NCBI GenBank assembly: GCA_973895155.1
Contig: OZ316896.1
Span: forward strand, 6,562,166-6,626,165
Source: Marsupella aquatica
Lineage: Eukaryota; Plantae; Marchantiophyta
Length of the DNA: 64,000 nt
Reading direction: 5' to 3'
The position numbers and the translations under genes are program-made. Of the stretch, positions 17,401 through 40,483 are shown one piece after another (positions within the stretch are counted from its first letter, which is position 1; each line of letters starts with the position of its first letter). The notes under the pieces were generated by a model that was given only the letters and a program-made list of their open reading frames with translations, was not told the DNA's origin and did not search any database.

Positions 17401-17982
17401 AACAGAGTTTCCCAGGTATCTTCTGCTTGTAGATCATAAGAACTGCAAGCTTTATGACTAAAAATCAACTGTTGTCATAATCTTCAAATTTTTCAAACTC
17501 AAATCTTGTAGGATTTACTCTAAAGATTTTGAAAACTTTCATCCACGCACAACAAAGTTCATAGATATGACTTCCGGTTTTTTTCACAAGCTGATGCCAT
17601 CGATCTTTAAATTAATTGTTCCTTTCAAATGATTTACAAGTCTGTTTGTCCGTCAAGTTTGCGAGACATCTGGTCTTGGGCTCTGGTCGTTTCTTAATAA
17701 CTTATGGCCATTCATGTTGGTTAACAGGTTGTGACCGCCCTAGCAGATCCAGCAGCGAACATAATCTTCGGGGCCGTAGTGGATGATAAGTACACAGGCG
17801 AAGTCCATGTAACAATTATTGCCACAGGCTTTTCTCAAACTTTTCAAAAAACACTTATAGATCCCAAGGCTGCTAAGCAAGAGCAACAAGAGGCATTAAA
17901 GGGTGTAGAGTCCCCTTGGAAAAGACCTGCCCCTGTTTCTTCACGATTTCCTCAGGGGCTTGGGAGCAAGGGTTTCTTGTAG
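14412..17982 (+). CDS. FtsZ1: Plastid division protein FtsZ1. Exons 14412-14735, 15654-15753, 16109-16338, 16787-16954, 17182-17415, 17728-17982 (about 436 aa; start codon uncertain)
   Basis: [35 protein letters not shown] GTPase signature, PFTFEG, IPNDRLL, NVDFADV and VTIIATGF. All five introns are GT-AG and splice in frame. N-terminus looks like a transit peptide. C-terminus GSKGFL lacks the FtsZ2 IPxFL peptide. Alternative in-frame ATGs exist, e.g. 14355. Confidence 0.95.
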
Positions 17983-18449: not shown

Positions 18450-19895
18450 ACCAAAATGTCCTTAGTTTCCCTCCTCGTACTACCCCCTTTGATGAGACCC
18501 AGCCTTCACAAGATTATTCCCCCAAGACTCCACTTGGCCAACCCACGATGGCTTCTTTTCTTGCTTGAACACACTCTTGTAAAACTCGGCCAAGCTCAAC
18601 TCCACCAGAGTGTGCCTAAATTAATTTCCCTTGAAGTCTCCCACGTTCCGTTGAAGTCCAGTGGCAGCAATAGTTTCCCTTAATGAACCACCAGAATTAG
18701 AAACGGGATGTTTATTCTTCTTCCGCGTGCACTTGAAGTGCACTACGAGCATCTGGTGTTCTTGAACCTTCGCGCACCTCCTTGTCTCTTCCACCACTGA
18801 CATCTCGAGATGGCTCGGGTGTTGCATTCCCAGGGTTCCCTGACACCAACCCGCGTCTGATTTTTGAGACCCTACAAGCAAAAACAATACTGGTTAATTA
18901 TAGCGCCCAGTGCTAGCCAAATTTCAACATGCACAGATATTCCAAATAGAAACAGTCTAGAATCTGGACTCATTCTTTTTGGTCTCTTTCTGAGATCCCG
19001 ATGGGGTTGTTTCTTGTTTGGCTTTCGCTTTGGGTTTTCGACTCCTTGCGACTTGAACAACTTGTGTCTCGCAAATCCTCTGCAGATCTATAGCTGATAG
19101 ATCAATCTCAGTATCAATCCCTTGCTTCATTTCCGACAAAATGTTTCTTGGATCAATATTCTTGAATAACTTGTGGAACGTATCCTTCTCTGTATCATCA
19201 AATGGGCAGCTCCACTTATCTGAGTCAAGATACCATGGGCAATGCAAAACTTCCCACTTTGCCATCTTTTATGGTGGATACTTCCCTTCTGCTGGGTACA
19301 TTGAGTACCAAAGAGAGTCTCCGGATGATTCTGACCTCAAATTTATACTGGTCCATTTCAGGAATACAACAGGATAAGCCCAGAAATAGTTTGGGTCATT
19401 CCTCTCCATTTTCATGTAATATCGATTCATTGAATTGCTGTGAGTACGACTTGATCTTGTTCTCACATAAGATATAGACCAAGGCTTCCATGGGCATTTT
19501 CTTAGTAAACCATGAACCCTTTCGGGTTCCTTTCCGCATCTTCTCAAATTTTGCATAATTTGTCTCATCAATGATTGGTTTGTAATGTTCAAGATCATGT
19601 GCCAAAACCCTCCTAATTCGGTCAGCATCCAGAATCCACAAAGACTCCACTACTGCCTGTCCCGTCCTGAGAAACTTAACTTGTTAGAAATAGCACCAGG
19701 CGCTAGCGTAAAGTCTACAACCAAGCAAAAATTGAAATTAATCTACAAAACCACACAACAAATACATTCTAATTAATATGGGCGATAGAGAACTCACTGG
19801 ATAACAATATGCTCTGCTTCAATTTTGATGATGGATTCCTTGTCCCCTTTGAAGATTGTGCAATGCACACGAAGATGTTATTTTGGATTCTCCAA
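18450..19895 (-). pseudogene. 3' part of a decayed, intron-containing TE-associated gene split by the 15.4-kb retroelement
   Basis: ORF fragments 19396-19650 and 18957-19265. Putative splice sites near 19797, 19669 and 18873. Frame joins that of 35286-35466 across the insertion. Confidence 0.45.
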
Positions 19896-20273
19896 TGTCG
19901 TGCGCATACACATCGCTACACAACATACATCGCTTGTCACATACATCCAAACATAGTCACACTGCCACATCACAAACACAAGAGAATGGAATACAAGCTC
20001 CTCTCTCTCCAAGGCTCAACATTGAAAGATGACCTTTCAATGCCTCACAAGTGAGAAGTACCCTCTCACACAAACCTGACGGAACCTTATCGGCTCATAT
20101 AGCACACATACCAAACATACGGATCTAGATAGTACGATACACTCTAACACTACCTAGAATGGTGTGACAGCTGTCGTGCGCATACACATCGCTACACAAC
20201 ATACATCGCTTGTCACATACATCCAAACATAGTCACACTGCCACATCACAAACACAAGAGAATGGAATACAAG
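19896..20273 (-). repeat. 3'-terminal repeat block Y-gc-X-Y of the DNMT retroelement
   Basis: 19896-19997 is identical to 20172-20273. 19994-20169 matches 35110-35285 with one mismatch. Junction GACA-GC-TGTC at 20166-20175. Confidence 0.92.
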
Positions 20274-20379
20274 TGGAACTCATGTCCACACATGTCCAAA
20301 ACCCACAATCGCCCCCCTAGCTGGGAGTAAGGTCCCCTAACTCTAGCTAGCCATGAGTTCTACAAGGTTGATATACACC

Positions 20380-21410
20380 CCCTGGGCCCTCACTCTTACT
20401 ATATCAAGTGAACCCCCCTGAGAACAGATACCCCCCGTGTACCTCTTCTTAATATTTTTGTTCACAAAAAAAATCCCCTTGTTAATGTAAAAATATTAAC
20501 TTTTCATATTAAATTTTATCCTTTTATAAATTATAATAGAGTTTTTCAAGGAATTGAAAACACCCTTGAATTTTTAGAATTACAAATATCATACTGAAAT
20601 AGTTAAAACTTTATCTTTCATAGGGGACTTGTATGTTATGCTCGATGTTCAAGGTACATATTTTATATAGATAAACAAAATTAGGACGAGAGAAAATTAT
20701 AGTTCTTCCTATAGTTTACACATAGACCTGCAGTTTTGTCTTAGTGTTCGCAAAAGTGCCTCTGAACTTCTAGTTTTCATTAGTACTATATATGTATAAT
20801 CCAAGAATAATACTTCAAAGTCTGAACCAACTATAACAAACATTGTTTGAGCGCTCGAGACCCCTCCCTCAATACACAAACACATCTGGCCTCATACATG
20901 GCTGTTTGATTCAAGGGAATTCAAAAGTAATCTTGTCCGTCCATGTGGGATTAATCCATGGATCCCCATCAATCCCAGTTTCCCAACCAAGTTGGGCCCA
21001 AAGATCCTGGCCCAAAATTTACTCAACTCCCCACTTAACTCCTAAACATGCGGGTAAACATGTCTACCTTAACCCATTTGTTCCACCATAAGGGGACCAA
21101 CGAAACCAAACTTGCCTTAAGATGATAATAATTAAATATCTGATTTACTATATGGACACGTGTGCAAATGAAGTGATGACATGTGTGTCAACCATATAGT
21201 GACGCGTGTACTTGGCATTTTGGGTACCCTTGCATAAGATTTATGTGACATGTATTTGATTCTTGCCTTATTACTAATATTGTGGTGAATGTATATAGAG
21301 GGATGTTGCCTACTTTAAAAACTGTTATAAAAATTAGTTTGCATTACATTAAAAATACCCTTGCGTTGTTCGCACGTCCTCCCTGTATTAGTAACACTAA
21401 GGGCCCAGGG
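20380..21410. mobile_element. Non-autonomous TIR DNA transposon (1031 bp) in the retroelement 3' UTR
   Basis: TIRs CCCTGGGCCCTCACTCTTACT / AGTAACACTAAGGGCCCAGGG. 8-bp TSD TATACACC at 20372-20379 and 21411-21418. AT-rich interior with no convincing ORF. Confidence 0.85.
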
Positions 21411-21522
21411 TATACACCTTTTTAGGTGTGAAGATCAGGAGGCCGGGTGCAAGTGAGCCCCATCGATCACCTACTTGCAATCCATATCTGCCAAGAGAAC
21501 ACAAATGATAACTAGTCGGGCT

Positions 21523-21598
21523 TCACCGACACTGAGGACACAACCATGATCCACTAGGAATCACCTGCAATGGTGGTGTCAAACATGACATGTGCCAT
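21523..21598 (-). pseudogene. C-terminal half of the PHD finger and the pol stop codon
   Basis: Translates WHMSCLTPPLQVIPSGSWLCPQCR*, completing CMLC...CDKCSRGW from 26378-26450. Confidence 0.9.
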
Positions 21599-24500
21599 TG
21601 TGATGCCTAGCCAGGAATCACTCGGCCAGTTAAGTGGGTAAAGCAGAAGTGCACCCTAGAAACACCTTAGTATAGGGACAAAACAAGGAAAATATAAACA
21701 ATTAGGGGCGACTATGGAACCCGGGCCGAGGCCGGAGGTAAGGACGCTGGGGGTGAAAACAAGATTAGGGTTACCCGCACTAAGCGTCGGCGGCTAGGAA
21801 GGATCAATGGAAGGAAGGACCGGAAGAGGAGAGGGGTAAGGACCGCTCGCGAGGAATAGTGGCTCATTTGCAAGAACAAACTGGGCAGACGACTACGGGA
21901 GGCCAAATACTGTCAGCTGCTTAGACAAGCACTCGGGGTGGGAACAGATACCAACGATCGACTCAAGGAGGGTATGAGCAACGTCAATCAAGCGGCACAT
22001 TTCTGGGGATGCCTGTTCGAACGGGCAACTGAGTACATCAAGACTTACAAGGACGAAGAATCAGAAAGGGCAGCTCGAGAATGGCAGGAGCTCGCTCGAT
22101 TGTGGGAGCTGCAGAAGACGGCTTTCTTAGGAGGCAAACTCATCAAGGCCGAGTTCTTGTGGACTCCTACTTCCAATCAGCTCGACGATCTTCTGTTTTG
22201 CGAAGATAGAGTCGTCGGCATCCGAGAAGCCATCAAACGCTGCAACAACATACACTGGGAGTTGAAGGGTAGCACGGAGGGGTGGACAAAGGCAACCGTG
22301 CTAGGAGAGACATCCACGGGAGCCAAAATGAAGAGGAAGGGAGCCGTCAACGATGAAGCCACCCCGGCAAAAAGAACGAGGTCGGCGGCACCCAAGAAGC
22401 CAGCCGAGCAGCAGAGCAGGAGGCAGAGAGAAGCCAAAGAGGAGGAGGACGATCCCATCAATGCCATTCCAACCAGGGATGACACCTGGAAAGGCTGGGC
22501 GGCAACCCTACCAGAGGAGGTGCAACTACATTTTGCACGGGAGGAGGATGCATGCTTTACGGCCATGCAGACCAAGAAGTACCAAGGCTTCATGGCCGGA
22601 TCCGGCTTAGAGGCCTTTGTAAGATTACCATGGCTGAAGCCAGAGGTGCCGGATTCAGACCTATTAGAATTCGTGGGGTCATGGGAACCCGAGACCAATT
22701 CCACGAGGATATATGGGAAGGATTTCTATCTTACTCCCAAGGTGATTGCCGAAGTGTTTGGCTTGCCGATAGGCAATAAGACCAAAGTTGATACCAGGAA
22801 GACCTTGCCTGACAAGGAGTTCCGGTCGTTCCCCGGGCCATCAACGAAGAATGGCTTCTTCCGGAACACTTGCACCAACCCGCACATAGGAGAGATGATC
22901 GACTTCTTGCGGGTGACCATGCATTGTAACTTGCCGAGGGCAGAGATCGGCAAGGCTCAGGTCTACCTGGCAGAAAGGCCAGACCCAAGCCGGGATTACA
23001 ACGGGTACCTCCTCAACCAACTGAAGAAGATCTTGAAGGAGGAACAACAGGTGATTGGCGTGGGAAGCGTGTCCCGGCTTGGCTATCACATGCCGCTGTT
23101 GTGCCGGTATGCCAAAAGTCAAATCTTTGCCCCAGTACTTCCCCTATCGGCAAGAGCACCGGAGGAGGATCCGGAGCAGACGCCGGCAATGGAGAAACCC
23201 AACCCGCCCGACAGTCCTACAATCGAGCAGGTGTTTAGGCCAAGGACGGAGGACTTGCCGATGCAACAACCAGGCATGCAGAATCTGCTGAAATTACTGG
23301 AGAAGGAAAAGAGAACGGCAACGGCAACGGCAACGGCAACGACACCAATGCAGGACACTGCTCCAGAGGTGGGCCTAAGCCGGCTTACAAGGGAAAACCC
23401 CTTTACTGGGGTCAAGGAGAGAAGGAGGCCGGAACACGAGCCGGGAGTCCGGATGTATGTCGGAGCCTTAAGTCCCGAAGCCGAGGAGAAGTAGGCCGTA
23501 GCTCCCGGCCACAACAAGGAGAACAAGAGATCAACACGGAAGCCGGAGGAGGAACCAAGACCGGTGAGAGGTGAAGCCGTGTTAACAACAGAACCAGGAG
23601 AACAGCGGGAGAAGCCGGTAGTCCAAGCCGAGGAGGAGGCGGTAGAGGACTACAGCAATGATGACTCCGGCTACGGGTCAGATCATCATGTTCCAGGAGT
23701 AAGGACTTGTGGCCGGTTCATCCCCACGCTCCCAAGAGTAGTTTGAGGAGACCCAAGCCAGCAGAGCAGCCCCGAGTCTCCCCCACCTGATGTCGCTCCC
23801 CCGAGCTTTGACAGCATAAAGCAGACGGCACAGGAATTTCAGGAGCGACTTAGGGAAGCAGAAAAGGCAGCCCTGGCTAGGGAAAAGGATTTGCCAGGAG
23901 GAGATTGGCCGGAGGACATCAGGCGGCTAGCCAAAAAAGGAAGCAAACCTCTAGCCACGATTGAAGAGATCCGCAAGACGGCTTGGGAGCAGAGGCCGCG
24001 ATGGGCGATGCCGATCACTTCTACTTACTCCACCTACGCTAAGAATAGAGCCATGGAGTATGGTGAGATATGTGGGGAACTTGCGCTCGGCATCTTTGGG
24101 GAGGAGTTGGAGGTAGGACCCTTTTTCCATAGGGAGCAGTTGGAGAAGCACCAATTAGAAGAAGTGGTGGCTTTAGAGAGAAGCAAGAAGGACGAGGTCA
24201 TCCGGCGGCTTAGGAGGATGGAAGCCGAGATTGAAGATCTAAGGGCGGCCAAGAAAGCCCAAGATGAACTGCGGATTAAGCGGCATGAGCTGAACATCAT
24301 GCAGGGGCAGTTGGACACCGCGCAGGCTGATAATTAGATTATCAAGGATAAACTGACTCAGACACAGGGAGAATTGGCCGACGCAATCAAGGACAGGGAG
24401 AAATGGAAGAAGGAGCTGAGAGACGCAGAGGAGGCCCACATAGCAGTCAACAACCGGGTCACGGCGGAGACTCAGAGAAGGGAGAGGGCGCTGAAGGAAG

Positions 24501-26377
24501 AGCTCGAGGTCATCCGCAGAGCCCTTGAGCAGAAGGAGGCCGAGTTAGGGAAATCCTATCAAGGGATTCTTGCGCTACAGCAGGAGCTTGCGTCCCTGAC
24601 GGCCAGCTTCAAGGCTGACCTGCGGGAGAAGGACGCCCAGCTCGACCAGACTTATGCCAAGATGAATAACATGGAGTCTGAGGTCGTAGCGGAGCTCGAC
24701 AAGGAGCTAAGAGCAACCCAGGAGGAGAGGGCTACCACCAAGAAGGAATTGGAGGAAGCCCACAGGGAATTGGAGGAAGCCCACAGGGAATTGGAGGAAG
24801 CCAAAAACGAGCTGGAAGAGGCACATAAGGACCTGGATGAGACCTAGGAGGAGTTGGAGGAAATCACGAGGAAGATGGAGAACCTACAGCGGCGGGCCGA
24901 CAACCAAACAGAGCGGCTGAAGAAACAAGCCGCAGTATTTAAATGCTTAGCTGCATCAGGTCCATCTCCCGTTGGGGCAAACCAGTTACCCGGGGTGGTA
25001 ATTGCCGAAGGACCAGCCGTGACACACGGCCCGGTGCTGGACGTTGGCGGCAAGGGGAAGGAACCGGCTATGGAGATAGTGAAGAAGAAGAAGCGGAAAC
25101 CTTCGGGGTCCGGAGGTTATTTGACCCCTCAAGCCGTACTCAAACCGGTACCAACCTCCGACATGAACACGGCAATAGATTCCGCTATCACCAAAGGTGG
25201 GGATGGCGCGGCCCAAGCCGAACTACTCAGTAATGAGGCCGGTATCCCAGACCCACCTCTTGAGCAGGCCGGGGAGGCCGTAGCCGAGGCTGAGGCCGTA
25301 GCCGAGAATGATTTCCGAGCCGAGGCCGAAGCCGAGGGTGGACCCAGTCAGGCCGATGGAGAGTTGACTCAGTCAAGGGCAGGTAATCTGTCAGAAAATG
25401 AGCCTACGGTAGTGGCTGAGGTGGAAGCGTTAGGGGCGTCCATTGAGGATCCACCACCGGTGTCGTGACGGTGCAAGGGCGCCGTTCCTTTTAGGAAGGG
25501 CGGACGTGGAGGGAGGAGGCGTGAGTGGGCAGGGCGGGCTCAGATCTCTAAGTTTAGGATTAGGATCAGGACCAGGAGGCGGCCCTGACACTTAGCTTAG
25601 TGGGATTGCGGTTCCACTGGTAAGAGCAACACTTGTACTTCTGCCTCGCTGTACATAGGTAGATCCAGTTAAGTAGATTAGGCTTACGCTGCAAAGAATT
25701 AGGCGGATCCACTACCAGGATAAGTACCTGGGCAGCGGGGAGCTTAGGGCCTCTTCTTTAGCAAGTTTTTAGTTTGCACCAGCCGGGCTGGGATCAAGTA
25801 GTAAGAGAAGCTCTCGGTTAGTCATACAATGACCCTTGTGTATATTCATGTTTCCTCATGCCTAAGAGCTGAATAGAGTTGGCCTCACGGCTTAGTTCGC
25901 AGAGCTTGTGTATGAGATGTACTGTTTGTATGGCAAGCGCATGGTATGATCGACTCAGTCAGAAGGAGTCATTTTGCTATTTGTGTGTCGCATTAACTTG
26001 TGTGAAGAGTGCCCACATCAACCAACAGAGGAAGGAAAGTAAGCAGGGGAGTGAGAGTTGGATGTGTCGAGCTGAAAGAGGTCTTAGCGGCTTAACCAAG
26101 CCTATTGGGGATCATTCTGGCGGCGGAATCCAAACATACCTAACCAGAAGGAGAGGAAGACAAGGGAAGGCCTAGATTAGGCCGGCTACGTATCTCATGA
26201 CCCGATGAAGGATCTGTCCAGTATATGTGTGTAAAATGTTAATAGTAGTAGTAGAAGGAGGTTAGCAGCGTCCCATGCCGCTAAGCCGCGGAAACGGCCT
26301 CGCCAAGCGTGAAACCTGCGGGAATCGGCTTGCGCTGGGGGGTTTCTTGGGTTTAGGGAGCCATGGGACGCACCACA
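21599..26377. mobile_element. 4.8-kb solo-LTR-like insertion in the PHD finger
   Basis: Termini TGTGATGC...GCACCACA. Perfect 5-bp TSD GCCAT at 21594-21598 and 26378-26382. No internal LTR pair, PBS or pol seen. Confidence 0.8.
21938..25468 (+). pseudogene. Retrotransposon accessory ORF (plant-transposon/mobile-domain-like region plus long coiled coil)
   Basis: ORFs at 21938, 23564, 23891, 24374 and 24854 share one frame, separated by TAG/TGA stops. Motif LLEFVGSW...IYGKDFYLTPKVIAEVFGLP. ELEEAH heptad repeats. May start near the ATG at 21714. Confidence 0.65.
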
Positions 26378-27740
26378 GCCATCCTCTAGAACACTTATCA
26401 CAAATCAACATAGTAGCTGCTCCCTGAGCAAATGCACACAACATACATTTCAAGCCAGCACGAACATGTGCCAAGCTTGGATCTACTGTACCATCAATGT
26501 TGGGAAGGTGACATGGTGCACAGTTGCGCACATGATCCTTCCAAACCATACCATCGCGTCCCTCCAACATCAGGACACCAGAAGGCAATACTTCACGCAC
26601 ACGTAAGATTGTCCGGCCTGCGGTCACATCAAGTATTGTGGGTGCTGTCTGCTGCAAATAAACATAATCACCAGGATGAAATCGTCGAATGCTTGCACGG
26701 TAACCTCCTCCACGAATAGTGGCATACCTCAAAGTATCACGATGTTGGGCAATGGCAAGGTTGTCAAAAGCCATGGGCATCACTCTCTGAAATACCCGTG
26801 CTCTCTCTGAACACACCTTGACCCAAACATCAGGATCATCCAAGTTCACAACTGGTGCAGCATCACGACGAATAGCTGCTGGAAAATCTGGCTCTCTACC
26901 ATAGAGCAAAAAGTAAGGTGAGAAGGATGCAAGTGATGCTTGCCGACTGAAACGGTAGCCCATAGCTAACCAAGGTAGCTGGAGATCCCAATCTCCTAGA
27001 TGACCAACCTGCAAGCCATACTTACGCAATCCTCTCTTCACAGTTTGCACAACTCTCTCAGCTAATCCATCTGCCTCAGGATGATCACGAGAGGTAGTAC
27101 GATGATCAATCAAAGCTTGTTCACACAAACTCTCAAACTCTCCACGGAACTCAGTTCCCTGATCAGTCAACACCTCAGCTGGTGCTCCAAAATGACTGAG
27201 TACGCGATCCAAAAATGTAGCAGCAACTCCTCCACTGGCTTTATCTGGCAACGCCACTAGCTCAATCCACTTGGAGAAGTGCTCCACCATGACCAAAACA
27301 TACCGATTATGGCATTGGGTAAAAGGTAATGGACCAGCAAAATCCAAACTCCAACGATATTCCAAACCCATGATTGGTAACGGGTGCAACTGGGGAGTGG
27401 GAGCATTAAATGATGCTCTCACTCTATCGCATACCACACACTTAGCTATCAACTATTGGACATGAGTGTGCATACCACGCCACCAATACTGTGTTTGCAG
27501 CAAGCTATAAGTGCGCTTCACACCAAAGTGACCCAACTCCTCGTATGCATGTTGCACCAAATGTACTCGTTGTGATGGTTTTGGTACCACCAACACCCTA
27601 CCATTATGTAGTACTCTCAAAAGATGGTTTCCCTCCCATCGAAACCTCTTGGCTCTTTGTAGAACCCTGTCACGTTCTTTGGCATCAACACTACCAACAA
27701 TAGAACCATTGCGCAGATATTCCAACACTCTCATATCATT
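26378..27740 (-). pseudogene. Gypsy DDE integrase plus N-terminal half of the PHD finger
   Basis: Zn domain LGHFG...CVVC, core WSLDFAGP / VLTDQGTEF / HPEADGLAER, then CMLC...CDKC. In-frame stop at 27453. Confidence 0.92.
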
Positions 27741-27949
27741 GTGAATATCTTGTTATCCAAAAGTTACCTCACCAACATCCACATCTGAAGACTCATCATC
27801 CACTTCATCCAATGAGGTAGAGTCCACAGATCCACTGTATGCTGGCACCCAACAAAGAAAGGCAGATGCATGCCATTCTGGCACCATCTCCTTATCTGAC
27901 TCATCATGCCATCTGGCTCCAGTCTCATCCTGCTGATTGGTACATGGAT

Positions 27950-29692
27950 TGCGGCTTAATCCATCTGCATCCAAGTTCACTTTTCCAGGCCTATGCACCA
28001 CCTGGAAATCATACTCCTGTAACAACAATGCCCATTGTGCAAGCTTTCCTGTAAGCTTGTCAGACTCCATTAACCACTTAAGAGGCTAATGATCAGTGAT
28101 CAAGGTGAAGGGGTTACCAAACAAGTAGCAACGAAAGTGTGCAACAGCCCACACTACTGCCAAACACTCTCCCTCATAAGAGCTATACTTAGCCTCTACT
28201 GAATTGTTTGATCTACTGGCATAAGCCACAACAAACTCATTCCCCTCATCATCCTTCTGAGTCAGCACTACTCCAAGTCCTACTCCACTCCAATCAGTGT
28301 GTAGCTGAAATGGTCTGCCTGAAATGTGTCTTCTCAAAATAGGGGATGATGCCAACCTTTGCTTCAACTCCTGAAAGGCATGCTCCTGGTCATCACCCCA
28401 AATCCATTCCTGATCCAACTTAGTGAGTATGGTCAAAGGTTTAGCAAACTGGCTAAATCCTTTAACATACCTCCTGTAGTAGCTCGCCAATCCCAAGAAT
28501 GCACAAACTCTACTCACATCAGTAGGACAAGGAATCTGTGTAATGGCCTCCACTTTAGTCTATTGTACACCCAATCCCCCTTGGTATATAGTGTGGCCCA
28601 AATACTCAATCTGGTCTTGGAAGAACTTACACTTGCTAGGATGGAGCTTCAACCCATGTGCTCTCAATCTCTCCAACACAGTCTGCAAGTGTTGCTGATG
28701 TTCTTCCACAGTAGAAGAATAGACCAAAATATAATCAATATAATATCTGATAAAATCCAAACTTGCAAGGATTCGATCCATGACTCTCTGGAACTCAGGT
28801 GGTGCATTCTTCAACCCAAATGGTAAGAATAACCACTGATACAAACAATCTTTGCCATAAGAATCAATCCCCCAGAATGCTGTCTTGGACCTGTCAGCAT
28901 GCCTAATTGGAAGCTGATGGTACCCTGCCCTCAGATCCAATGAACTGAAAACCTTTGCATGCCCCACAACATCAAAGATCTCCTCAGGTGTGGGCATGGC
29001 ATATCTATCAGATTTTGTCTGGCGATTAATGGGTCTGTAATCACCACACATGCGCCTATCTATCTCGGGGGTTTCACTTCCACAAAAATGGCATATCACG
29101 TGCGACAAAGGATAGGGTCATTTTATTGATTGTAAGGGAAGACTTAAGAATTTTTGTAGAAGAACAATAGGGTCTTTTAAATTCAATTTTGAGACTTATA
29201 AGAACATTAGGGTCTTTTTAATCCAATTTTTGGAATATTCCAAGAATATTTCAACTTTATAGGGGTTAAAAAATAATATTTGTTTCTTACATTTTAGGGG
29301 GTCCAAGGCCTAAAAACGTCGTAGGTGATGGGGAGGTCCCCATGTAGTGAGACCCCCGAGCTATCTATGTAATTGCCATGCACATCCTTCTTGGCTGGCA
29401 TCACTGTGGCAGATGCATACTCCCCATATGAAATCTCCACCAATCCAACCTCCAACAAATCTTGAGTTCTGCTTTGAATCAGAGCTCTCTCCATGTCACT
29501 GTAACGGTATGGCCTACGAAAGATTGGCGCATCACTAGCCAATTCAATCTGAATACCAGGACCCTTTAATGTCCCCAAATCTTTCATGCTAAATGCAAAA
29601 CAATTCCAGTAACTCTTCAGGAATCGATGCATGCGACGTCTCTCCTCCCTTGTCAACTTAGGGCCAAGCTGTGGTTCCCAACTCTCCACCAA
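27950..29692 (-). pseudogene. Gypsy reverse transcriptase and RNase H, disrupted
   Basis: RMCGDYRPIN, LDLRAGYHQ, LPFGLKNAP, YIDY (YxDD mutated), FLGLASYYRR, HTDWS, YASR, YEGECLA, ITDH, ADGLSR. Interrupted by the MITE at 29064-29360. Confidence 0.92.
29064..29360. mobile_element. MITE, CTCGGGGG-TIR family, copy 2, inserted in RT
   Basis: TIRs CTCGGGGGTTTCACT / AGTGAGACCCCCGAG. 8-bp TSD CTATCTAT at 29056-29063 and 29361-29368. Confidence 0.93.
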
Positions 29693-29934
29693 ATCCCTAA
29701 TATCTCTTTGTAGGGTAGAAGAGATAGCCGATGATTGCTATTTAGCAGTAGATTGAGCAGTCCCTTCCTGCTCAACAATCTGTTCAGCCTTGGCCAATCC
29801 TGCCATAGGTCCATGGACTGTCTGCTCGCCCCCAGCTGTGGTCAGTACTGTCTTAGTGGACCGCAAGCTCACCAAGGGACAATCAGTTAAATCCAGCAGA
29901 GCGCATCCGCAACTGTTCAGCTACTCCCAAGCTG

Positions 29935-30876
29935 ATAATCCAAGTCAAACAATTCAGGTCCATTGCTTGACAAAGAACCTAGCGCCGCAAACCCTCTGAC
30001 ATAGAGGCAACTGCAGTGGTGCCAGTCAAAAATCCCATAGCACTCTCTCTCTCATCAGCAGTAGGTTCCACTAACTGCTGGAGAACTGTGTCCCACACAA
30101 GTCCAGGGCCACCTGCTCTGAATGCATATGAAGCAGAGTGGCTTACAAGAGTGGGTAATGCACAACGTGGGCACCCAACTGCATTGACCATTGCCAATGG
30201 AGGTCTATCAGGTTGGGTCACACCCTGTGCACGACGCCCTGGATCCAAAATATCATCCACCACTAAGGCTGGTGAGCGTGGAATGCTGTCAAAATGCGCG
30301 CTTCAGCACCTCACATGGGATCAAATTAGTCCACCACAAGCGTGGATGATGTGCACGAGAACCCACACGTGCAGCATCCAATAACACAGCAAGTCCAACC
30401 CAATACCTCACCTGGTGAACACTGGCAACAATCCGACTACGATCATCACCTGACAATGGCACATTCTCCAAAATGTATGCTGGAGAGTGTGTCTGATGTA
30501 GCTGGAGATGACGCAGCACCCGTAACATCTCCCAAAACAATGCAGAGCGTGGATCATGAAGTCCATGCCCAACACCAGCTCTAGATTGGCCCTGACATGG
30601 CCAACCAGCAATCACCAAATCAATGGGGCCAACACGATGCAGATGATCTGCCCCCAGCAATGAAATATCAGCAGGTAGTGCATGCTGATAACCACGAACA
30701 ACATCCACTTGCAACAATTGTGGATATCTATCCACCAACATAGCCACATGTCGCAATGAGACCCTCCGTGCTATCTCATCTGACTCTACATACAAATAAC
30801 GACGCACAGGAATTCCTGCCTGAAGAACAGCAGCCAATCCAGTGCTAATCCCACCAAAAAGATCCAACAAACAAAT
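29935..30876 (-). pseudogene. DNMT3-like C5 cytosine DNA methyltransferase domain within pol
   Basis: Motif I LDLFGGIST, II YVESD, IV IAGWPCQG, V GLHDPRSALFWE, VI YILENV, VIII LLDAARVGSRAHHPRLWWTNL, IX ERESAMGFLTGTT, X VLCQAMDLN. One frameshift (about 30291) and one stop (29979). Confidence 0.9.
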
Positions 30877-31289
30877 ACCCTCTGGTGGATATTGCCAAGC
30901 AATAGGAGTGGTATCCAATGGTGAAAGAGTCACAGGTTCATCTGCAAGAGGCTGCTTTGCTCCTGACTGTGGTGTAAAAGCATGACGCCATGCATCATGT
31001 ACCAATCGTGCTGCTGTCTGTGGCAAGGCTTGTGCAGTGCCCCACACTGGTGGCACAACACTGCCAACAGGTAATCCTCGCATGATGTGCTTCTTATGAG
31101 ACTCCTCCAATGATGGAACATCTACTGCATGCGCATTACCCTCAATCAAATCATCAGGTCCAGCAATTAGACCACGGAATGTTGCCAAATACAATGGTGT
31201 GAATTTAGGGCCTCCCACAGGTCCACTAAATCTCACTGGAAATTTTCTCAATCGAGCATCTCCTGACTGCCAATCAGGTCTATATGACA

Positions 31290-31640
31290 CTGATTCCTCC
31301 CAAAAATCAAGAATAAATCCCATGGGGTAGAGCACTGTACATCCCACCAACACATCATATGACTCTGCCTTAGTCAAAATAGCTTGCGATTGTATCTGTG
31401 AGCTATCTATGGTATGACCTTCCTGAATCCTCAAATCAAGAGGTCTCCTGGTAATGTGTTGTGTAGGTGTAGGTCCCCCCAATGAAGTCTGAATGGGAAA
31501 GGGACAATCCTCCAAATCCTCTGGACGCAATCCCAATCCACGTATGGCAGACTTTCCCAACATCAAGGGCTGAGCACCAGTATCCAGTAACACCCTCTCT
31601 GGCTGGTATACTGCTCCAGAAGGCCCAACTAATCGGAAGA
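31290..31640 (-). pseudogene. Retropepsin aspartic protease domain
   Basis: VLLDTGAQPL and YDVLVGCTVL motifs in ORF 30289-31944. Confidence 0.8.
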
Positions 31641-31831
31641 TACCACTCCGATTATCCAATGATACAACACTAGGTTTAAACCTAGTCCTCTCAAATGCAG
31701 GGCGTGCTGGTAAATCCACCAACCTCGTTGCTGTTGCATGCCATGTCTCACTAGTAGCAGTAGGTGGCATGGTCTTCACTACATCAATACTGCAAGTTGC
31801 TTCTGCATGGGAAGCAACCACTAGAGTGTCC

Positions 31832-33710
31832 TCACAGAGTGTAGCTGCCAATCTGAACACTTCTGCAGGACCAACTCCCAAGTTCAGCATGTTTGTCACT
31901 GAAAATAATGGGGCGCGTACCATGGCAATAGCCGCCCCCAACAACGTACGTCATCCCTGCTACATCACTACCTGATTCTGCCAACTTACCCACATCAAGG
32001 TTTGTTCGAACCGGGTTCATAGAGGCAGTCTGAACTGTCTCTAACAATGTAAAAGACTGTGAAAGCTTTGTCTGCCGACGTGCATCCCCCCTTTGTGGAT
32101 CTAACTCCACTACTGCTCCTTGGGGCTCAAGAACTTTGGCTGCCCCACGTGTCAAAGCTGCTGATGCATCAATATGTGCAGTGCCACACATGAATCCCAT
32201 GGTGGCAAGGTCTCCATCAGCTCCATAAGATGTGGAAGGACCATGGGATGTGGAAGGTCCATAGGATGTTGATGCCCCATCACCAGAAGTAGGTCTCACC
32301 TGGGAACTAGCCATGGCAGCTAGCTGTTGCTCCAATTGAGCAATCTTAGCATCCTTTGGATCTATGGTTATAGCAGGGGTAGCGTCACCTCCCTGTCTCC
32401 CTGCATGTGGCATGCCATGACCACGTCCACCGCCTCTACCTCCTTCTCTTCCCTGATCATGTGTACGGGATCCTCCTCTCCGTAACTCAGGATGGAGTGA
32501 GAAACACCTATCCTTGGTGTGTCCAGGAGCTCCACAGTGATCACACTGTCGCTGATCAGGCGTAGATGCTCCCCCTAATCCTCTATGATCTGGGCAATAT
32601 CTCTGTGCATGATCCCCACCACAGGTCCAACATCCTGACTGCTGTCCAGCATAAGAGGGCACAGGTCTCTGGCTGGTAGACTCTCGTGCAGTAGGCTTCT
32701 CCCTCTGGCTCTTCCGTGCAGTAGGCTGTGGTGTGGATGTGGATGCAGCCTTTGGTGCTTCCTTGGAAAATCCGGAAGTCACCACCTTCTCATTCACCAT
32801 ATTGAGCTCAATGCGCTCAGAAACAACTGCTAATGTGGGATCTGCATCCCTAAGCAGAGTGATATCTCTCACTCTACGTCGCAATTCTCTGTCCAGAATT
32901 GCATACCAAAACTGGACTGCCTGAGCCTCTGTCACTCCCTTGGTGATAGTGATCAATCTGCGCATACGAGTGTATGCCTCACGTAGACTCTCTCTAGTCT
33001 TGCGCTGGAACTCCTTAAGACCCTTCAACTTATCAGTTCTTACACCCTGATAGTTCTGCTTTAGTACCTCAAAGAATTCCACCATAGGGTTAAATGCTAG
33101 CGCAACTCCAGTTCCTGTCACAATCACACCGGCAGGAGTAGCAGATGATGCTGCTGGTGGATGATGTGCCACTCTGGCTAGTGCTGCTAGAAGAAGCAGC
33201 AGTGTGGCAATGGGTTGGGCAGCCGCACTAGTGCCATAGGTGATGGACACGTAATTAGGCGACCAATGCTGCCTCCATGCCTCAATCTCAACCAAATGAT
33301 TGAGCCTTCCAAAACTCATGGTAGTCATCCATGGGTGGCCCCTCCAAATGCTGAAATAATCCCTTCCATGCCATGAAAGGGGTAAACAATGTGGCGTTAC
33401 GCAATGTCTGCATATCGCACCACGTATCAAACTCCCGGATGAAGTCATCCAGATCAATCGTGCCAACTGCACCAGAGTATTGTCGTGGGCCCTTTGTAGC
33501 CCCGTACATCTCGTCCATATCCCACAACAAAGGTGCAACCACCTGATGATGAGGAGAACTCGTCACTGAGTCCTCATCAGAATCACTATCTGAAGCTGCA
33601 CTGCTGACTGCTACCAATGCCGCTGGCCGAAACTGTGCCCCACTCCGAGTGAAACCGGTCCGTCGTCCATCAGGTAATCCAGCAGCACCAGAAGAATCCG
33701 TGGTGACCAA
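31832..33710 (-). pseudogene. Gag of the DNMT retroelement, frameshifted
   Basis: YSG..DLDDFIREFDTWC, FQRKTRESLREAYTRM, and two CCHC knuckles CWTCGGDHAQRYC and CDHCGAPGHTKDRC. Confidence 0.85.
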
Positions 33711-34269
33711 CCCTAACCTAATCTATGTGCTAACCCTAAGGGCAATCTATCCCTGTCAGCACCACAAGCATTCACCATGGTGTGTTGGACATCACTCCAA
33801 CATCACCAGGAGAGAAATACACAGCACACTAGAATGTCCAGTTGCAAACCCGGATCACTCCTATGGAATCAAGCGCCCACATCGAACCAACATGGCACAT
33901 AAACAGGAAACAAGTGTGGAGAGGATCCAATCAACAAGAATAGTCAAACACTAACTCTCCACACCAAGAGTGATCACACATTGATCAAACAAATATTCAT
34001 AATGTTCAATGAAAGGCCTTCATAATAGGCTTCATGATGTCCCAATGTTATAGATGAGAAACCATGCACAATTGGTTCAATCTGTGTATTTAGATGAACT
34101 CAGAACTATCCAAAACCTCTAAAGAGCCTCTGATTTGGCCCGAAACAAGGCTCTAAGCAAACCCGAAAGTGTATAAAGCCCCCTGGCGCTTGAATCTAAA
34201 TAACAAGTTGTGAAAACTTGTGTGTACACAAGGTGGGATGAGAACTTTTCAGTTAAGTGCTTGCGGCTG

Positions 34270-34440
34270 GGAATAGCCCCGGGATGGGTGACCTCCTCAC
34301 GCTCGACCTTGTGTCTCCCCTTGCGCTCATGACCCGGAATAGCCCCGGGATGGGTGACCTCGACCTCGCGCTTGCTTGCGCTCGTGATGGGTGACTTCGC
34401 GCTCGTGGTTGGGAGCACTTTCGGGATGGGTGACCTCACG
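34270..34440. repeat. Four GATGGGTGACYTC motif copies in the retroelement leader
   Basis: GGAATAGCCCCGGGATGGGTGACCTC at 34270 and 34336, shorter copies at 34386 and 34422. Confidence 0.8.
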
Positions 34441-35109
34441 CGTCCCCTTATGCACGCACAGTTGTGTGTGTACACAAAACAAAAGTCGTCGGGCTCAGAA
34501 ATGGCAACATTTGCCACTCGAAAGTAGTGATTTCCTTCACAAAAACGGCAACGTCGATGGCTCTCGATCTCTACAAACCTGTCGCGCACGGTTCTGGGAC
34601 ATTTTGCGAGCGTCCCTTGACAATAAAATGTTGCGAGCACTCAAAATTCCAACAGATCTGTCCACAAAACAGCAGTGCGATACAAGCAGCAACCTTCGGC
34701 CATCTCTTTCCAGATCTAGACTCCGACTCAATCCAGATCTAGACCAGATCCAGATCCAACAACGTTCAAGCTTGGCCAGAACCAGATCGAATAACAACAG
34801 AGTACTCAAACAATAGAACCAACGATTCAAGAAACATGAATCCGCGTCAAACACAAATCCAATTGATTCGAGCTACCATGAACCGTCACCGTCAACGACA
34901 AACTCAGACTGAGCTTCTGTCTGCACAACAGAGTTTGAAGCTCATGATCTTTCAATGTAATCTCCATACAATCGGCACAACGATCCCGGTCAACAATACC
35001 CCATTGATCCCGCACCGATCCGATCACACACGTATGTCAAGCCAACGCACCTTGCACTACTCAAGAAATCCACGTTACACAAGCGGAGCTCACAGCCACC
35101 ATAGCCACT

Positions 35110-35285
35110 CAAGCTCCTCTCTCTCCAAGGCTCAACATTGAAAGATGACCTTTCAATGCCTCACAAGTGAGAAGTACCTTCTCACACAAACCTGACGGAA
35201 CCTTATCGGCTCATATAGCACACATACCAAACATACGGATCTAGATAGTACGATACACTCTAACACTACCTAGAATGGTGTGACA
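35110..35285 (-). repeat. 5'-terminal repeat X of the DNMT retroelement
   Basis: Matches 19994-20169 except one base. Contains hairpin CATTGAAAG-atgac-CTTTCAATG. Confidence 0.92.
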
Positions 35286-36210
35286 CCAGACTCTCATTTG
35301 TAACTTGAGTCCACAAATACAAACGATGGTTTCCATAAAAAATTGAGAACATCTTGTCCTTGAGGACCAAGAAAGCGGGATCGCCATCACATTCAGTTTT
35401 GAATAGTTGGTTCTCAACTGCCCAAATTGGATCCCATGTGCTGCAAATTTTGTTGGACAGGTGCAAAGTTGTTGAGCACGTTCTTCATTAGATGGCTGGA
35501 CAAAGAAGCGCATGCCAATTGCCGAATTGTACCCAGAAGTCCTAAATGAGTCCTTCAGCTTCACAATCGATTGACTATTTCTATGAAGGGTTCAAACAAC
35601 CTCCATATGAACCAGGCAAGAGGAATTCAGGGAAGTTCTTTTGGCAACCCACTACCATCAACTCCAAACGACATGATGTGCTTGTCGACGACATCTACAA
35701 CTTACTTCTCCACATCTTCAGCATTTTGAACCGCAAAACCACCAAAATGCTCCATTTTGGCTTGCCTAGGTTCTGGAGATTGGAGCTCTATGTGACTGGG
35801 AGGATACTGTGAGGTCAAACGCGTTACTCTTCTACTCGACACACAACTTGAATATGACGACTCCAAAGACTGGGAATGATGTGGAGACCCAGCTCCCATT
35901 TTGTTATACTCTCTACCCCTTGCCATTTTTTCCCGTTTGATGTTGTCCCATACGATAGTTAATTCAATCCAATAACCAACCTTCTTGCCTATGACCTTGT
36001 TCGGTACGGTAGTTTGTTTAGCCAATCACGTACCTCCTGGTCTCCCCTTCCCAGCTCGCTTCCAAGACGGACAACCTGGTCAAACGACCCTAACAGAATG
36101 GCAATTATCTGCCACGCTTGAGTTCCCCCAAAAGGACTATCATTAAAGTTGTTGACAACTAGGATCGAGTAAACCGATGTAAGGTATATGAAGGGTTTGC
36201 AAATGGGCAA
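35286..36210 (-). pseudogene. 5' part of the decayed TE-associated gene, with a ParB/Srx-like GNHR motif
   Basis: Fragments SGYNSAIGMRFFVQP and KMFSIFYGNHRLYLW. Joins across the insertion to NESL|ENPK*HLRVHC. Confidence 0.45.
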
Positions 36211-37590
36211 TGTAAAAATTCACCTAAGACCGCCCAGAGTGGCATGACTTTGTGATAGCTCACTTGATTAGAGACTGATAGGTCTTGGGTTCAACTATAA
36301 TTGTGGCTGACACTTCCCAACTATCCAACTATTGTGGCTGATTCTTCTTTTCTATGGGGTTTCACAGATTTCCCATAAAATGTTACCATTGCAAAATGTA
36401 CCATTTGAAATAGTGTTGGGTGCTAGCATTCATTTATTACCATTAATCATGTTTATACATCTGTAGTATGTAACGCCACCCAATATTCTAGTACTTAGAC
36501 CCTAAATTTATTCACACAGACTTTAAGATATATTTTAATAGCGTGTGGCGCTAGTCAAAATTTAACAATGGTAAAGTGCATAAAAATGTACCGTGACACA
36601 AAATATGATGTTAAACAAGAAAATATGTCATATATTTCAAAACTGCATGATATAATACAAAAATGAACATTTATAATTACCCAAATATAACTTCTCAGTT
36701 GGATAGTGTCGTGGGCTATCATCCAACCGTATAGCTATTGGTGTTTAAAGATGGGTATAATATTCTTTTCTTGGATAGCGCCTGGCGCTAATGTCACTTA
36801 CAAAAACATCCTTTTGTGAGGTGATATCTGTCTTTTCAAAGATCCTCAATGCCATTAGAATGTGACAAATGGTCATTGATTATCAGTATATTTGTCTTAT
36901 TTTGAGATGATAACGGACATTTTTTCATACATGTTAGTTATATGGACGATCATGAGCCTTGGAATGTCATTTTGCAATGGATTTGTGTATTGTAATTTCC
37001 CGCAATCCTCCTTGGGATGTTGTATCTATCCCTCTCCCAAGTCTTATGAAACTTAAAGAAATTTTGGAGGAATATCCCTGGGAATATCTTGCCATCAGGT
37101 TTGGGATTCTCAGTGTGAATATTTGAAATGTTGTCAACTCTGAAGAAGGTGTGGTTGTTGCCATCGATGTCATTGGTGGAGTTTGACATTGGAGATTGTT
37201 AGGTGGTAGTATGAGCTTGTTATTGATTGCAAGCCTGAAGTTGCATGAGTGTCAAGGATGTTGAGCATTGACGACAATTGCAACGGCAAGCCCATGAACC
37301 ATCCAATGCACAAGAGTCGACACAAAGAGATACGTGGTTCACCTCCACATGAGGCTATGTCCACAGGAACACTCAAGAGCTTTACTGCACTCTAGGCCGA
37401 CAGGCCATACCAATCATCCATTGCGCAAGCTTTCCCGATCTCTCAACTAGCTCCGTAACAATGAGCCTTAGTCCCAAAAAGGCTGGCATCAGCCCTGGCT
37501 ATATACACAACAGCACTACCACTAACCTTAGCTAAGTCCTAACCCGAGTTAGCCTAACTATGGTTAGCTCATGAGTCACAAGACTAAGAG

Positions 37591-37874
37591 GAGGCTTTAC
37601 ACCGTGTCAGGAAACAGGAAAATGATTTCCTGTTATGAGCAAAATTTTACTGTTATCAGCAAAAATGAGATATAAAAAATTTCTCATTAAAACTCAAAAT
37701 TTTCAAAATATTTTTAAAAATGATCATTTTTGGCTAGCGCCAGGCGCTAGTAAAAAATGTCAAAAATTTAAACCAAAAAAAAAAATTCCCAAAAAAAATT
37801 CAAAAGAAATTCAAAAAATTCTCATCCATTTTTCTGTTTATTGTTTACTGTTTCCTGGCACGGTGGTTATACCT
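37591..37874. mobile_element. MITE inserted in the copia 3' LTR
   Basis: Absent from the partner LTR. TIR core ACCGTGYCAGGAAACAG. Duplication GACTAAGAG at 37582-37590 and 37875-37883 (9 bp; an 8-bp reading is also possible). Confidence 0.88.
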
Positions 37875-39195
37875 GACTAAGAGCAATACCTAACAAACTC
37901 CCCCTTGACTCTTGTCTTGGGGATTGGACTAATTGCTACCATATGGAATCCTCAGCGGGAAGTTCTAGACAATCACCTAAATAGGTCTCCCCCTAAAAAC
38001 CACAAGAGTTAACTAAGGGTTAACTAGAACTAAGCCGTAGCCAAACTGGAATGAGTAATCCATATACAAATAGTCACAACATTGCTAAATAACTCTACTT
38101 GCGCTACAACTGCAAAACATGCAAAGTAGCACTGTGTCTTGAGAAACTCTCCAAAGGAAATCACTTTGGTAAAGGCATCAGCGGGATTGAGCTTTCCATC
38201 AATCTTGACTAGCTCAAAAGTTTTATCAGACAGTGCTTGTCTGATAAAATGGTACCTGGTATCAATGTGCTTCACTCTGTTATCCATCACCTGGTTAGCA
38301 ACCAAGTGAAGAGCACTCTGACTATCACAGTTTAGAGATATTTTGCCATGCTCTAAACCCATCTCCATGATCAACCTGTCCAATCAAATTTCTTCCTTTG
38401 CCACTTTTGCTGCTGCAACATACTCTATTTCTGTAGTAGACTGAGAGATACACTTCTGCAAGGTAGATTTCCAACTGATACATTCTCCTCCAAGAGTAAA
38501 TACATACCCAGTTGTAGATCTCCTTGTATCAAGACTTCCTCCATAGTTAGAATCTACATAGCCAATCAACGTTCTATTTGATCTGACATCAAATAGCAAG
38601 CCATGGTCCAGTGTTCCCTTCAGATACTTGAGAATCCATTTCACAGCTTCCCAATGTACCTTCCCTGGATTTGACATGAATCTGCTAACCTTGCCCATTG
38701 CTAGGGCCAAGTCAGGCCTAGTACAAGTCATCAAATACATCAGACTGCCTACTGCCTTCTCATAAGGAATCTTAGCCATCAGACCTTTCTCCACAGCATC
38801 CGTAGGAGAGAACGCCGATGATAACTTGAAATGTGAAGCTAAAGGAATACTCACTAGCTTACAATTTTCCACGTTGAATTGTGCAAGTACCTTCCTCACA
38901 TACTTGCCTTGATTCAAGCACAACTGTCCAGTATCAGAGTTCCTAAAAATCTCCATCCCTAAGATCCTCTTGGCCTTACCAAGATCCTTCATCTTGAATT
39001 TAGAACTCAATTTTGCCTTGACTCTGTCAACCTCAGATTGGTCTTTAGCCACAATTAGCATGTCATCCACATAGAGAACCAGAATGATGAAACCAAACAC
39101 ATCATTCTTGACTGATTTTGTATAGACACAAGGATCATACACCATCATTGTAAAACCTTGAGCAAACATGAAATCATCAAACCGCTTGTTCCATT

Positions 39196-39479
39196 CTTGG
39201 GGGGTTAACTAAGTGTATATTTTGGGGTACCACGTGCGATCCTAGCCTAATATAAATAGACCTATTTTATAAAGAAATTATTCCAAGAATATTCTCTATT
39301 TTCAATATTAATAACCTATTTTATTTTATAAAAAGTATATATTAGAGAATATTCTATAAACATGAGTTTATAATACCTTCTTTTGCCTCCTACGCTTTTT
39401 AAAAATTTAGTTAATTTCTATCAAAAATACCTATTTTGGATCGCACATGGTTCCTAAGATTTTTAGTCAACCCCCCGAG
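39196..39479. mobile_element. MITE of a related CTCGGGGGG-TIR family, inserted in copia RT
   Basis: TIRs CTTGGGGGGTTAAC / GTCAACCCCCCGAG. 8-bp TSD GTTCCATT at 39188-39195 and 39480-39487. Splits QWN|KRFDDF. Confidence 0.9.
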
Positions 39480-40429
39480 GTTCCATTGTCTAGGAGCTTG
39501 CTTCAATCCATACAAGGACTTGAGCAATCTACAAACTAAGTTCTCTTGGCCCTTCTTCATAAAGCGTGGTTGTCTCATGAAGATCATCTCTTCCAAGTTG
39601 CCATAGAGAAAAGCAATAACAATGTCCATCTGATCCATCACCAGACCAAAAAACATAACAAGATGACACAAGATCCCAATTGTGGAATACTTAGCCACTG
39701 GTGAAAAGACCTCATTGTAATCCACTCCTTTCTCCTGAGTGAATCCCTTGGCAACAAGCCTTGCCTTGTAGATCTTGTCTCCACCCTCTGAAGGACTGTC
39801 CTTCAACTTGTAAATCCACTTGCTGTCCACCACTTGCTGACCTCTTGGAAGCTCCACAAGTTCCCATGTCTTGTTGTCACTCAAAGATTGCAACTCCCTC
39901 TGCATTGCTGCATTTCATTCATGCTTCTGCTCTGAAGTACAAGCCTCACTCTACAAAGAAGGCTCTCCTTCAAGATCAAAGTCATATCATCATCATCAGG
40001 TGCAATGTCAATATCATCTAGCTTAGATGAGTCTGCCCATTGACCATACCTGGTAGGAGGTCTAGTAGAACGACTAGAAGTTCTCCTAGTAGATGATTCA
40101 GGCTGATCTACTACTATTGCTGGCTGAATTTGAGGTACCCCAACAAAAATCTGCTCCTCTTGTTCCATCACAGGAACCAGCTCCATACTCGGAGCTTCTC
40201 CATCTCTCCTATCATGAACATCATCAATGACTAATCTCCCCCTCAACCCGGTCCGGGCTAGGAGATTTTCCTTTGTCAGTATGGGAGTCCTGAGAATTCT
40301 CTCCCTCCTTTGATGATCTGGATTCATTAAAGGACACATCTCTACTGACAATTAGCTTACAGGTTACTGGATCCCATAACCTATACCCTTTCACACCTTT
40401 CTGATAACCAAGGAAAATGCACTTCTTTG

Positions 40430-40483
40430 ACTTGGACTCCAACTTGGATCAAAGCTACTTGGACTCCAACTTGGATCAAAGCT
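40430..40483. repeat. 27-bp tandem duplication
   Basis: ACTTGGACTCCAACTTGGATCAAAGCT x2. Confidence 0.9.

Follow-up and report, generated by a model that had tools for sequence, protein, structure and literature searches.

Split direct repeats in a Ty3/Gypsy retrotransposon family with a DDE integrase: probable integration at a palindrome inside the LTR

Introduction

In the standard model of LTR retrotransposon integration, integrase uses the ends created by reverse transcription. HIV integrase is reportedly also able to cleave palindromic 2-LTR junctions. For foamy virus, cutting of palindromic LTR junctions by integrase has been described (PMC1180852). With regard to repeat structure, the most relevant described element is KnitGypsy-Dnmt3 from the alga Klebsormidium nitens, for which a DIRS-like layout has already been published in the legend of Fig. 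4c (de Mendoza et al., 2018; PMC5890265), while the accessible portion of that article gives no mechanism, target-site duplication (TSD), priming site or palindrome. A second point of reference is provided by Tf1, Tj1 and Tcn1, in which the sequence behind the 5' repeat is the complement of the predicted 5' end of the RNA and no tRNA primer-binding site is present (PMC4600332; PMC6317226). The PAT, Ngaro and SymbioDIRS elements, finally, combine the order A-ORFs-B-A-B with a tyrosine recombinase.

The element described here was found in a window of 64,000 nucleotides, i.e., the whole stretch of DNA analysed. It shares the domain order protease-DNA methyltransferase (DNMT)-RT-RNase H-integrase with KnitGypsy-Dnmt3, the integrase being 58% identical to that of GAQ92009.1, but resides in a land plant, probably a bryophyte, and not in an alga. 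It resembles Tf1, Tj1 and Tcn1 in its priming site, but differs from these elements with their normal terminal LTRs by a permuted LTR and a C-terminal PHD finger. It has the repeat order of PAT, Ngaro and SymbioDIRS, but a DDE integrase, TG…CA ends and 4-bp TSDs in place of a tyrosine recombinase. No description of a permuted LTR in a retrotransposon was found in the literature searched, which lay mostly outside subscription papers and Repbase/Dfam notes. While the layout is thus known from one alga, the inside-out integration that may explain it is a proposal of the present analysis.

Results

The element at positions 19896..35285 is a broken (dead) copy of a Ty3/Gypsy retrotransposon, which is read from the minus strand and in that orientation displays the order A-ORFs-B-GC-A-B. 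Typical of Ty3/Gypsy are the order protease-RT-RNase H-integrase, the D,D35E integrase, the TG…CA ends with a TSD of 4 bp (4-6 bp in the group) as well as two putative priming sequences, a primer site behind the 5' repeat and a polypurine tract in front of the 3' repeat. Two complete terminal LTRs are absent, the LTR being permuted. The split direct repeats A-ORFs-B-A-B agree with the DIRS order (PAT/Ngaro), yet no match to a tyrosine recombinase was obtained in Pfam scans of element ORFs of at least 100 aa, and PF00589 is absent from the precomputed domains of 120 homologues. The preliminary description of a gypsy DDE integrase without an accompanying recombinase is therefore upheld. A C5-DNMT inside Gypsy Pol in the same domain order, as judged by pairwise similarity, and the DIRS-like repeats are features shared with the KnitGypsy-Dnmt3 lineage.

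The broken gag-pol region (21523..33722, minus strand) was delimited from ORFs, Pfam matches and homologues, the two PHD halves being read from the sequence, and encodes gag with zinc knuckles, protease, C5-DNMT, RT, RNase H, integrase and PHD finger in this order, interrupted by several stops and frameshifts. The C5 cytosine methyltransferase domain occupies approximately 29960..30880 on the minus strand (PF00145, E 6.5e-10) with a frameshift near 30290, and the ORF containing protease and DNMT matches K. nitens GAQ92009.1 (E 2e-37). The DDE integrase core and the first half of the PHD finger follow at 26380..27452 (minus strand; rve, E 1e-13). The closest solved relative of the integrase is Ty3 Gag-Pol (E 4e-14), and the catalytic residues D37, D97 and E132 are present and invariant across 36 aligned relatives. 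Two later insertions, neither assigned to a strand, are foreign to the element: a MITE-like sequence of 299 bp in the RT (29064..29362), which is skipped in sibling copies and has further copies at 2667-2949 and 43819-44117, and a TG…CA insertion of 4.78 kb (21599..26377) with a 5-bp TSD that splits the PHD finger and is likewise skipped in sibling copies, where 21593 is joined to 26378. The preliminary description had captured the DDE gag-pol and had overlooked the methyltransferase, the PHD finger and both insertions.

Two direct repeats had originally been reported, X of 176 bp and Y of 102 bp, together with a gc spacer. The coordinates bear this out: X is present at 35110-35285 and 19994-20169 with one mismatch, Y at 20172-20273 and 19896-19997 without any, and the 2-bp GC spacer lies at 20170-20171. 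X and Y are nevertheless only the surviving parts of longer repeats. Because sibling copies connect 34958/34968 to 20308/20309 in 4/4 runs, repeat A extends from 35285 to 34959 and repeat B from 20309 to 20172. Accordingly, on the minus strand, A1 (34959..35285) comprises 327 bp, starts with TGTC and contains X as its first 176 bp, and B1 (20172..20309) comprises 138 bp, ends with GACA and contains Y as its last 102 bp. A2 (19994..20169, minus strand) is truncated at its 3' end in the window copy, while B2 (19896..19997, minus strand) is truncated at its 5' end, ends with GACA and shares the CTTG microhomology at 19994-19997 with A2. This 4-bp overlap, CAAG on the plus strand and CTTG in element orientation, had been taken for two matching inner boundaries; it is the scar of a single 191-bp microhomology deletion, specific to this copy and no trait of the family. 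The further suggestions of an LTR-less unit and of a head-to-tail dimer with a deletion at CAAG likewise find no support; as to the former, the repeats can be understood as a single permuted LTR that has a G-tract and a site for self-priming. The joint of 20308 to 34958 was also considered as that of a non-autonomous deletion derivative, a reading dropped because the G-tract context in loci L002, L008 and L081 puts the start of B at 20309; solo A-B or deleted copies would yield an identical joint and are a possible source of it.

The element is flanked on the minus strand by CTGG on the 5' side (35286..35289) and TTGG on the 3' side (19892..19895), which agree in 3/4 bases and differ by a C/T transition. 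Ten elements could be evaluated for 4-bp TSDs: six were perfect, three contained one transition and one (L054) had none. TG…CA ends combined with 4-bp TSDs are what a DDE integrase leaves. B is joined to A by the palindrome GACA-GC-TGTC (20166..20175, no strand assigned), the predicted cut site of integrase, which is conserved down to 42-54% integrase identity. The pattern occurs downstream of integrase in 35/87 loci, two of which are chance flank matches, and it was restricted to 2-bp spacers and missed L045, L058, L064 and L072 (spacer of 3 nt in the latter); upstream, 166,823 bases contained no match.

A primer-binding-like site at 34947..34958 (minus strand) adjoins A1, lacks the tRNA-type TGG start and is complementary in 12/12 positions to 35135..35146 (minus strand), the predicted transcript 5' end and 12-nt self-primer; none of 50 control 12-mers paired equally well. 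Transcription probably starts at 35135..35146. A clear TATA box was not detected upstream of this predicted start in the window copy, while a TATA-like box lies 30-34 nt upstream of the self-primer in 12/13 relatives (12/14 elements including that of the window). The 12-mer following A matches the site within A in 10-12 of 12 positions in 13/14 elements, the A ends of L038, L067, L081 and L009 having been placed by hand from the motif; the value for L020 is only 9/12, reached by 5/50 controls. Pairing is kept despite sequence change between lineages, e.g., L081 vs. L009, and complementary pairs of 12-14 nt of similar kind occur in 4/6 distant loci. At the other end of the coding region, a polypurine-tract-like G-tract (20312..20318, minus strand) lies just before B1, with the same context in L002, L008, L009 and L081. 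In at least 28 loci of family 2 a G-run directly precedes B, which begins at the edge of the tract.

The split-repeat layout is family-wide. As had been proposed, independent insertions were compared: A-ORFs-B-GC-A-B is common to seven distinct full-length relatives (eight loci) and is also seen in 19 distinct 3' ends, and a normal LTR, the arrangement named in advance as speaking against the layout, occurs in 0/11 elements with a visible 5' end. B is found neither directly after nor upstream of A1 in any of these 11, and none of eight double elements has the mirror form A-B-GC-A-ORFs-B (probability 0.004 at 50:50). Copies of the form A-ORFs-B are frequent. L088 and L089 (23% identity) were excluded from the family counts, and the viral contigs scanned contained no relative. 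Many loci recur at an identical insertion site, so family 2 may derive from one host species. L081 and five others (L009 and algal-type loci) read B-GC-A-leader, the ends of L081 overlapping by 127 bp; this was discounted as evidence for circular DNA, as assembly collapse can give the same picture.

Among 16 distinct copies of family 2, the A2/B2 joint is full in five, short by 1-2 nt in nine and affected by larger deletions in two. When mapped on the tree, these classes show no clustering, with 15 changes against 14.4 after shuffling; the power of this comparison is low because the tree is nearly star-like (7/23 branches well supported), and a few trimmed joints fall in sister copies (L060/L066, L025/L044). 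Within the family of the window copy, the joint looks mostly precise in four runs, among the joints listed, a result that inheritance would give too.

Discussion

The scrambled A…B-A-B order is likely explained by an integrase that cuts a palindrome inside the repeat and not the ends made by reverse transcriptase. We consider it probable, judging from the sequences compared, that the cDNA ends are left unused and the element is inserted inside out. Transcription would begin about 140 nt into A1. The RNA 5' end would then serve as primer for the minus strand at the position directly following A, comparable to self-priming in Tf1, and the plus strand would be primed by the G-tract at the start of B. 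With priming at these two positions, reverse transcription would thus yield an ordinary linear cDNA with the LTR B-GC-A. The DDE integrase would then cleave the upstream GACA-GC-TGTC, discard the 2-bp spacer and join the TG of A and the CA of B to target DNA cut with a stagger of 4 bp. The ends made by reverse transcriptase (end of A, start of B) would be joined to each other, either prior to strand transfer or following it, which would produce the A2/B2 joint. A-ORFs-B copies could arise via B-repeat repair, from cuts at both palindromes or from a 1-LTR circle. Layout, ends, TSDs, the G-tract before B, the complementary 12-mer, the palindrome and the variable joint are observed, and the steps connecting them are inferred. 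The sole use of the upstream palindrome is left unaccounted for by the model. In foamy virus (PMC1180852) and HIV, too, a DDE integrase is reported to act on a palindromic junction of the form CA-(n)-TG that is internal, as is predicted here; their junction arises from the cDNA ends, whereas the palindrome described here is encoded in the LTR and its use apparently the normal route.

Several other routes to this layout have to be weighed. In a PAT/Ngaro-like route, the transcript would run from A1 into B2, B1-GC-A2 would template end repair into a circle, the A2/B2 joint would be inherited and a DDE integrase would have replaced the recombinase. The repeat layout equals that of DIRS-order elements as presented in the accessible part of PMC5890265, and the mostly precise joints listed for the window's family fit as well. 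We regard this route as unlikely, as it does not account for the self-complementary primer site at the end of A, the G-tract at which B begins or the scattered variants of the joint, and a circle carrying the palindrome twice in identical form should produce the very mirror forms that were not seen. The latter also bears on a strictly symmetric 2-LTR circle, formed from the same cDNA as in the preferred model and cut at either palindrome. Such a circle would account for layout, variable joint and TSD, and circle-junction cleavage has been reported for foamy virus (PMC1180852, in the part available). With equal use of both sites, half of the copies should nevertheless read A-B-GC-A-ORFs-B, and the lack of mirror forms, together with the lack of B upstream of A1, therefore renders this circle improbable. 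Of the initial suggestion of a non-canonical replication route, possibly through a circular intermediate, the first part is likely, while a simple symmetric circle is disfavoured.

Insertion in DIRS/PAT style by a tyrosine recombinase acting in trans would fit the layout, and a single window leaves room for trans factors, but it is rendered very improbable by the 4-bp TSDs and TG…CA ends, by the fact that the 2-bp spacer is lost and the D,D35E integrase intact, and by the negative recombinase searches among homologues and ORFs. That a normal LTR element was rearranged on a single occasion, or misassembled, would fit the copy-specific CAAG joint but is refuted for the layout, which recurs in the independent full-length insertions, the distinct 3' ends and K. 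nitens; a contig from a sequencing run also spans each host junction without any difference. We consider this explanation next to impossible.

Returning to inside-out integration, a wider formulation is advanced tentatively, as plausible rather than probable: a clade of Gypsy elements of the green lineage, bryophyte-type and algal-type, may have shifted integrase attachment away from the cDNA ends and onto a palindrome in the interior, with only the upstream site of the linear cDNA being cut, both halves being inserted and the break in the new copy being closed either by host end-joining (A-ORFs-B-A-B) or by B-repeat annealing (A-ORFs-B). If true, this would constitute a third route of integration among LTR-type elements. 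An uncoupling of priming sites from integration ends, as proposed here, would represent a distinct integration route and might connect LTR architectures with those based on split repeats (DIRS/PAT). The high-copy family would escape annotation tools that demand an LTR at both termini, as does the survey described in the accessible text of PMC6317226. A paper of 2019 stated, in the portion available, that 'land plants, such as tracheophytes' lack DNMT-carrying transposons (PMC6338049); in contrast, DNMT-carrying Gypsy elements are now placed in a land plant.

Structure and Boundaries of the Element

The broken gag-pol on the minus strand of the window gave Pfam matches to C5-DNA methylase (DNMT; E 6.5e-10), reverse transcriptase (RT), RNase H and rve integrase, with Ty3 Gag-Pol as the best solved relative. 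Pol closes with a PHD finger, and so does that of most of the 120 listed homologues. A 4.78-kb TG…CA insertion of later date splits the PHD finger, and a 299-bp MITE-like insertion interrupts RT, both of which are skipped in sibling copies. The larger insertion (21599–26377) is flanked by a 5-bp target-site duplication (TSD), lacks an internal repeat pair, has very high read depth and contains about 1,100 codons of plus-strand ORF pieces, for which Pfam returned no family above cut-off and weak coiled-coil matches only; one possibility is a giant solo LTR carrying an additional gene. The MITE-like element of about 300 bp has three copies in the window (2667–2949, 29064–29362 and 43819–44117), and the copy inside RT is bordered by a short duplication.

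The preliminary description had reported split direct repeats X and Y, a GC spacer and a 4-bp overlap, and all of these were borne out, with X at 35110–35285 and 19994–20169 (176 bp, one difference) and Y at 20172–20273 and 19896–19997 (102 bp, identical). Contigs from four runs, mapped on 19300–36300, indicated a highly repeated element family, and those of all four runs contained a joint from 34958/34968 to 20308/20309. As a G-tract precedes position 20309, the same context as at the start of repeat B in the related loci L002 and L008, joint and G-tract together define the true repeats as A (35285–34959, 327 bp) and B (20309–20172, 138 bp). The window copy has thus lost 191 bp across its A2/B2 joint at a 4-bp microhomology, and L067 carries a comparable private deletion. 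The earlier argument from a shared CAAG boundary therefore falls, the overlap being private to the window copy, while the layout A-ORFs-B-GC-A-B stands.

Elsewhere in the window, a plastid FtsZ gene with introns (about 14300–17440) lies near the element; one 60-aa exon matches two liverwort proteins at 100% identity, against no more than 90% for named green algae. Judged by this single exon, the host is a land plant and probably a bryophyte. A Copia element (6702–13766) with matching ends of about 113 bp has an 86-bp tandem duplication in its 3′ end (13592–13766), a truncated Copia element (37259–41419) lies between 332-bp repeats at 94% identity, and two L1-type LINEs occupy the minus strand (46384–52490 and 54541–59337).

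Distribution of the Split-Repeat Layout

Relatives were gathered by integrase alignment; the best 80 were taken from 453 confirmed metagenome loci, together with nine genome-contig loci. The complete form A-ORFs-B-NN-A-B was present in eight loci representing seven distinct insertions. When 3′ ends were counted only with enough flank and loci with identical flanks were merged, 19 distinct ends read B-NN-A-B and 17 a single B followed by host DNA, while two were B-NN-A without B2 and two were degenerate. Normal two-LTR copies with B directly after A1, which according to the preliminary description would reduce the layout to a one-off, were absent from all 11 elements whose 5′ end is visible, the window copy among them, and in none of these 11 did B lie upstream of A1 (the mirror form, A-B-GC-A-ORFs-B). 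The split-repeat layout is real and family-wide. Many loci recur at identical insertion sites, so that few host species stand behind them. Seven loci (L081, L082, L083–L087) are plant/algal retrotransposon contigs filed under prokaryotic MAGs (cyanobacteria, Halorubrum, Mollicutes), for which binning contamination is the likely cause.

Elements end in TG…CA, and the 4-bp TSD is perfect in 6/10, differs by one transition in three including the window, and is absent in L054; L003, a single A-ORFs-B copy, has a perfect one. GC stands directly outside an element end in L054 (2323–2324), L032 (1994–1995) and L049 (880–881), which could be coincidence or a spacer that was retained.

Internal Palindrome and Putative Priming Signals

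The B1/A2 joint reads GACA-GC-TGTC or has the spacer AC, GT or AT, variants that we infer to be the expected products of cytosine deamination. A pattern limited to 2-bp spacers, by which four degenerate joints were missed, occurred downstream of integrase in 35/87 loci (two of the 35 being chance flank matches) and not once in 166,823 upstream bases. The palindrome is kept in loci at 42–54% integrase identity, some with the Pol order RT-RNase H-DNMT-integrase. DNMT precedes RT in the window and in the K. nitens protein, and lies between RNase H and integrase in L056, L076, L087, P0048 and P0084.

A G-run immediately precedes B in at least 28 family-2 loci (all those listed). The 12 nt following A in the window are complementary at 12/12 positions to a site inside A (0/50 controls), and such pairing reaches 10–12/12 in 13 of 14 elements, four A ends having been set by hand from the motif and that of the window independently from reads. 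The 12-nt sequence changes between lineages with pairing kept, and a TATA-like box lies 30–34 nt upstream of the complementary site in 12 of the 14. The arrangement agrees with the self-priming described for Tf1/Tj1 (PMC4600332). Among 16 distinct family-2 copies, the A2/B2 joint was full in five, short by 1–2 nt in nine and more extensively deleted in two, classes that did not cluster on a weakly resolved tree.

Proposed Route of Replication

Judging from these signals, the minus strand would be primed at the 3′ end of A and the plus strand at the 5′ end of B, and standard reverse transcription would yield a linear cDNA flanked by B-GC-A, with ends devoid of TG/CA. Since inserted copies begin and end at palindrome halves, without GC and with a 4-bp TSD, the DDE integrase likely cuts the internal palindrome, which would drop GC and create the TSD; foamy virus integrase is reported to cleave a palindromic LTR junction (PMC1180852). 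The A2/B2 joint would be a join of two RT-made ends, which would explain its variability and the start of B2 at the G-tract edge.

Integration from a symmetric 2-LTR circle should produce half of the copies in mirror form, but 0/8 were found (probability 0.004). The upstream palindrome therefore seems to be preferred, e.g., if linear cDNA were cut by integrase and its ends joined afterwards. Single A-ORFs-B copies would be compatible with such cut linear cDNA, as well as with a 1-LTR circle, with cutting at both sites or with B1 x B2 recombination at a later stage. The whole mechanism is deduced from sequence and consists of predicted steps.

Relation to Known Elements

KnitGypsy-Dnmt3 from Klebsormidium nitens combines a DIRS-like repeat arrangement with Gypsy domains according to the legend of Figure 4c in de Mendoza et al. 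(2018; PMC5890265), and going by this legend the layout has already been published. Its domain order is shared by the window element, whose integrase is 58% identical to a K. nitens protein and which is a dead copy of a KnitGypsy-Dnmt3-like lineage. Literature searches turned up neither a mechanism nor an analysis of the ends, and no member from a land plant. The layout is known; the mechanism is apparently new to the literature and testable.
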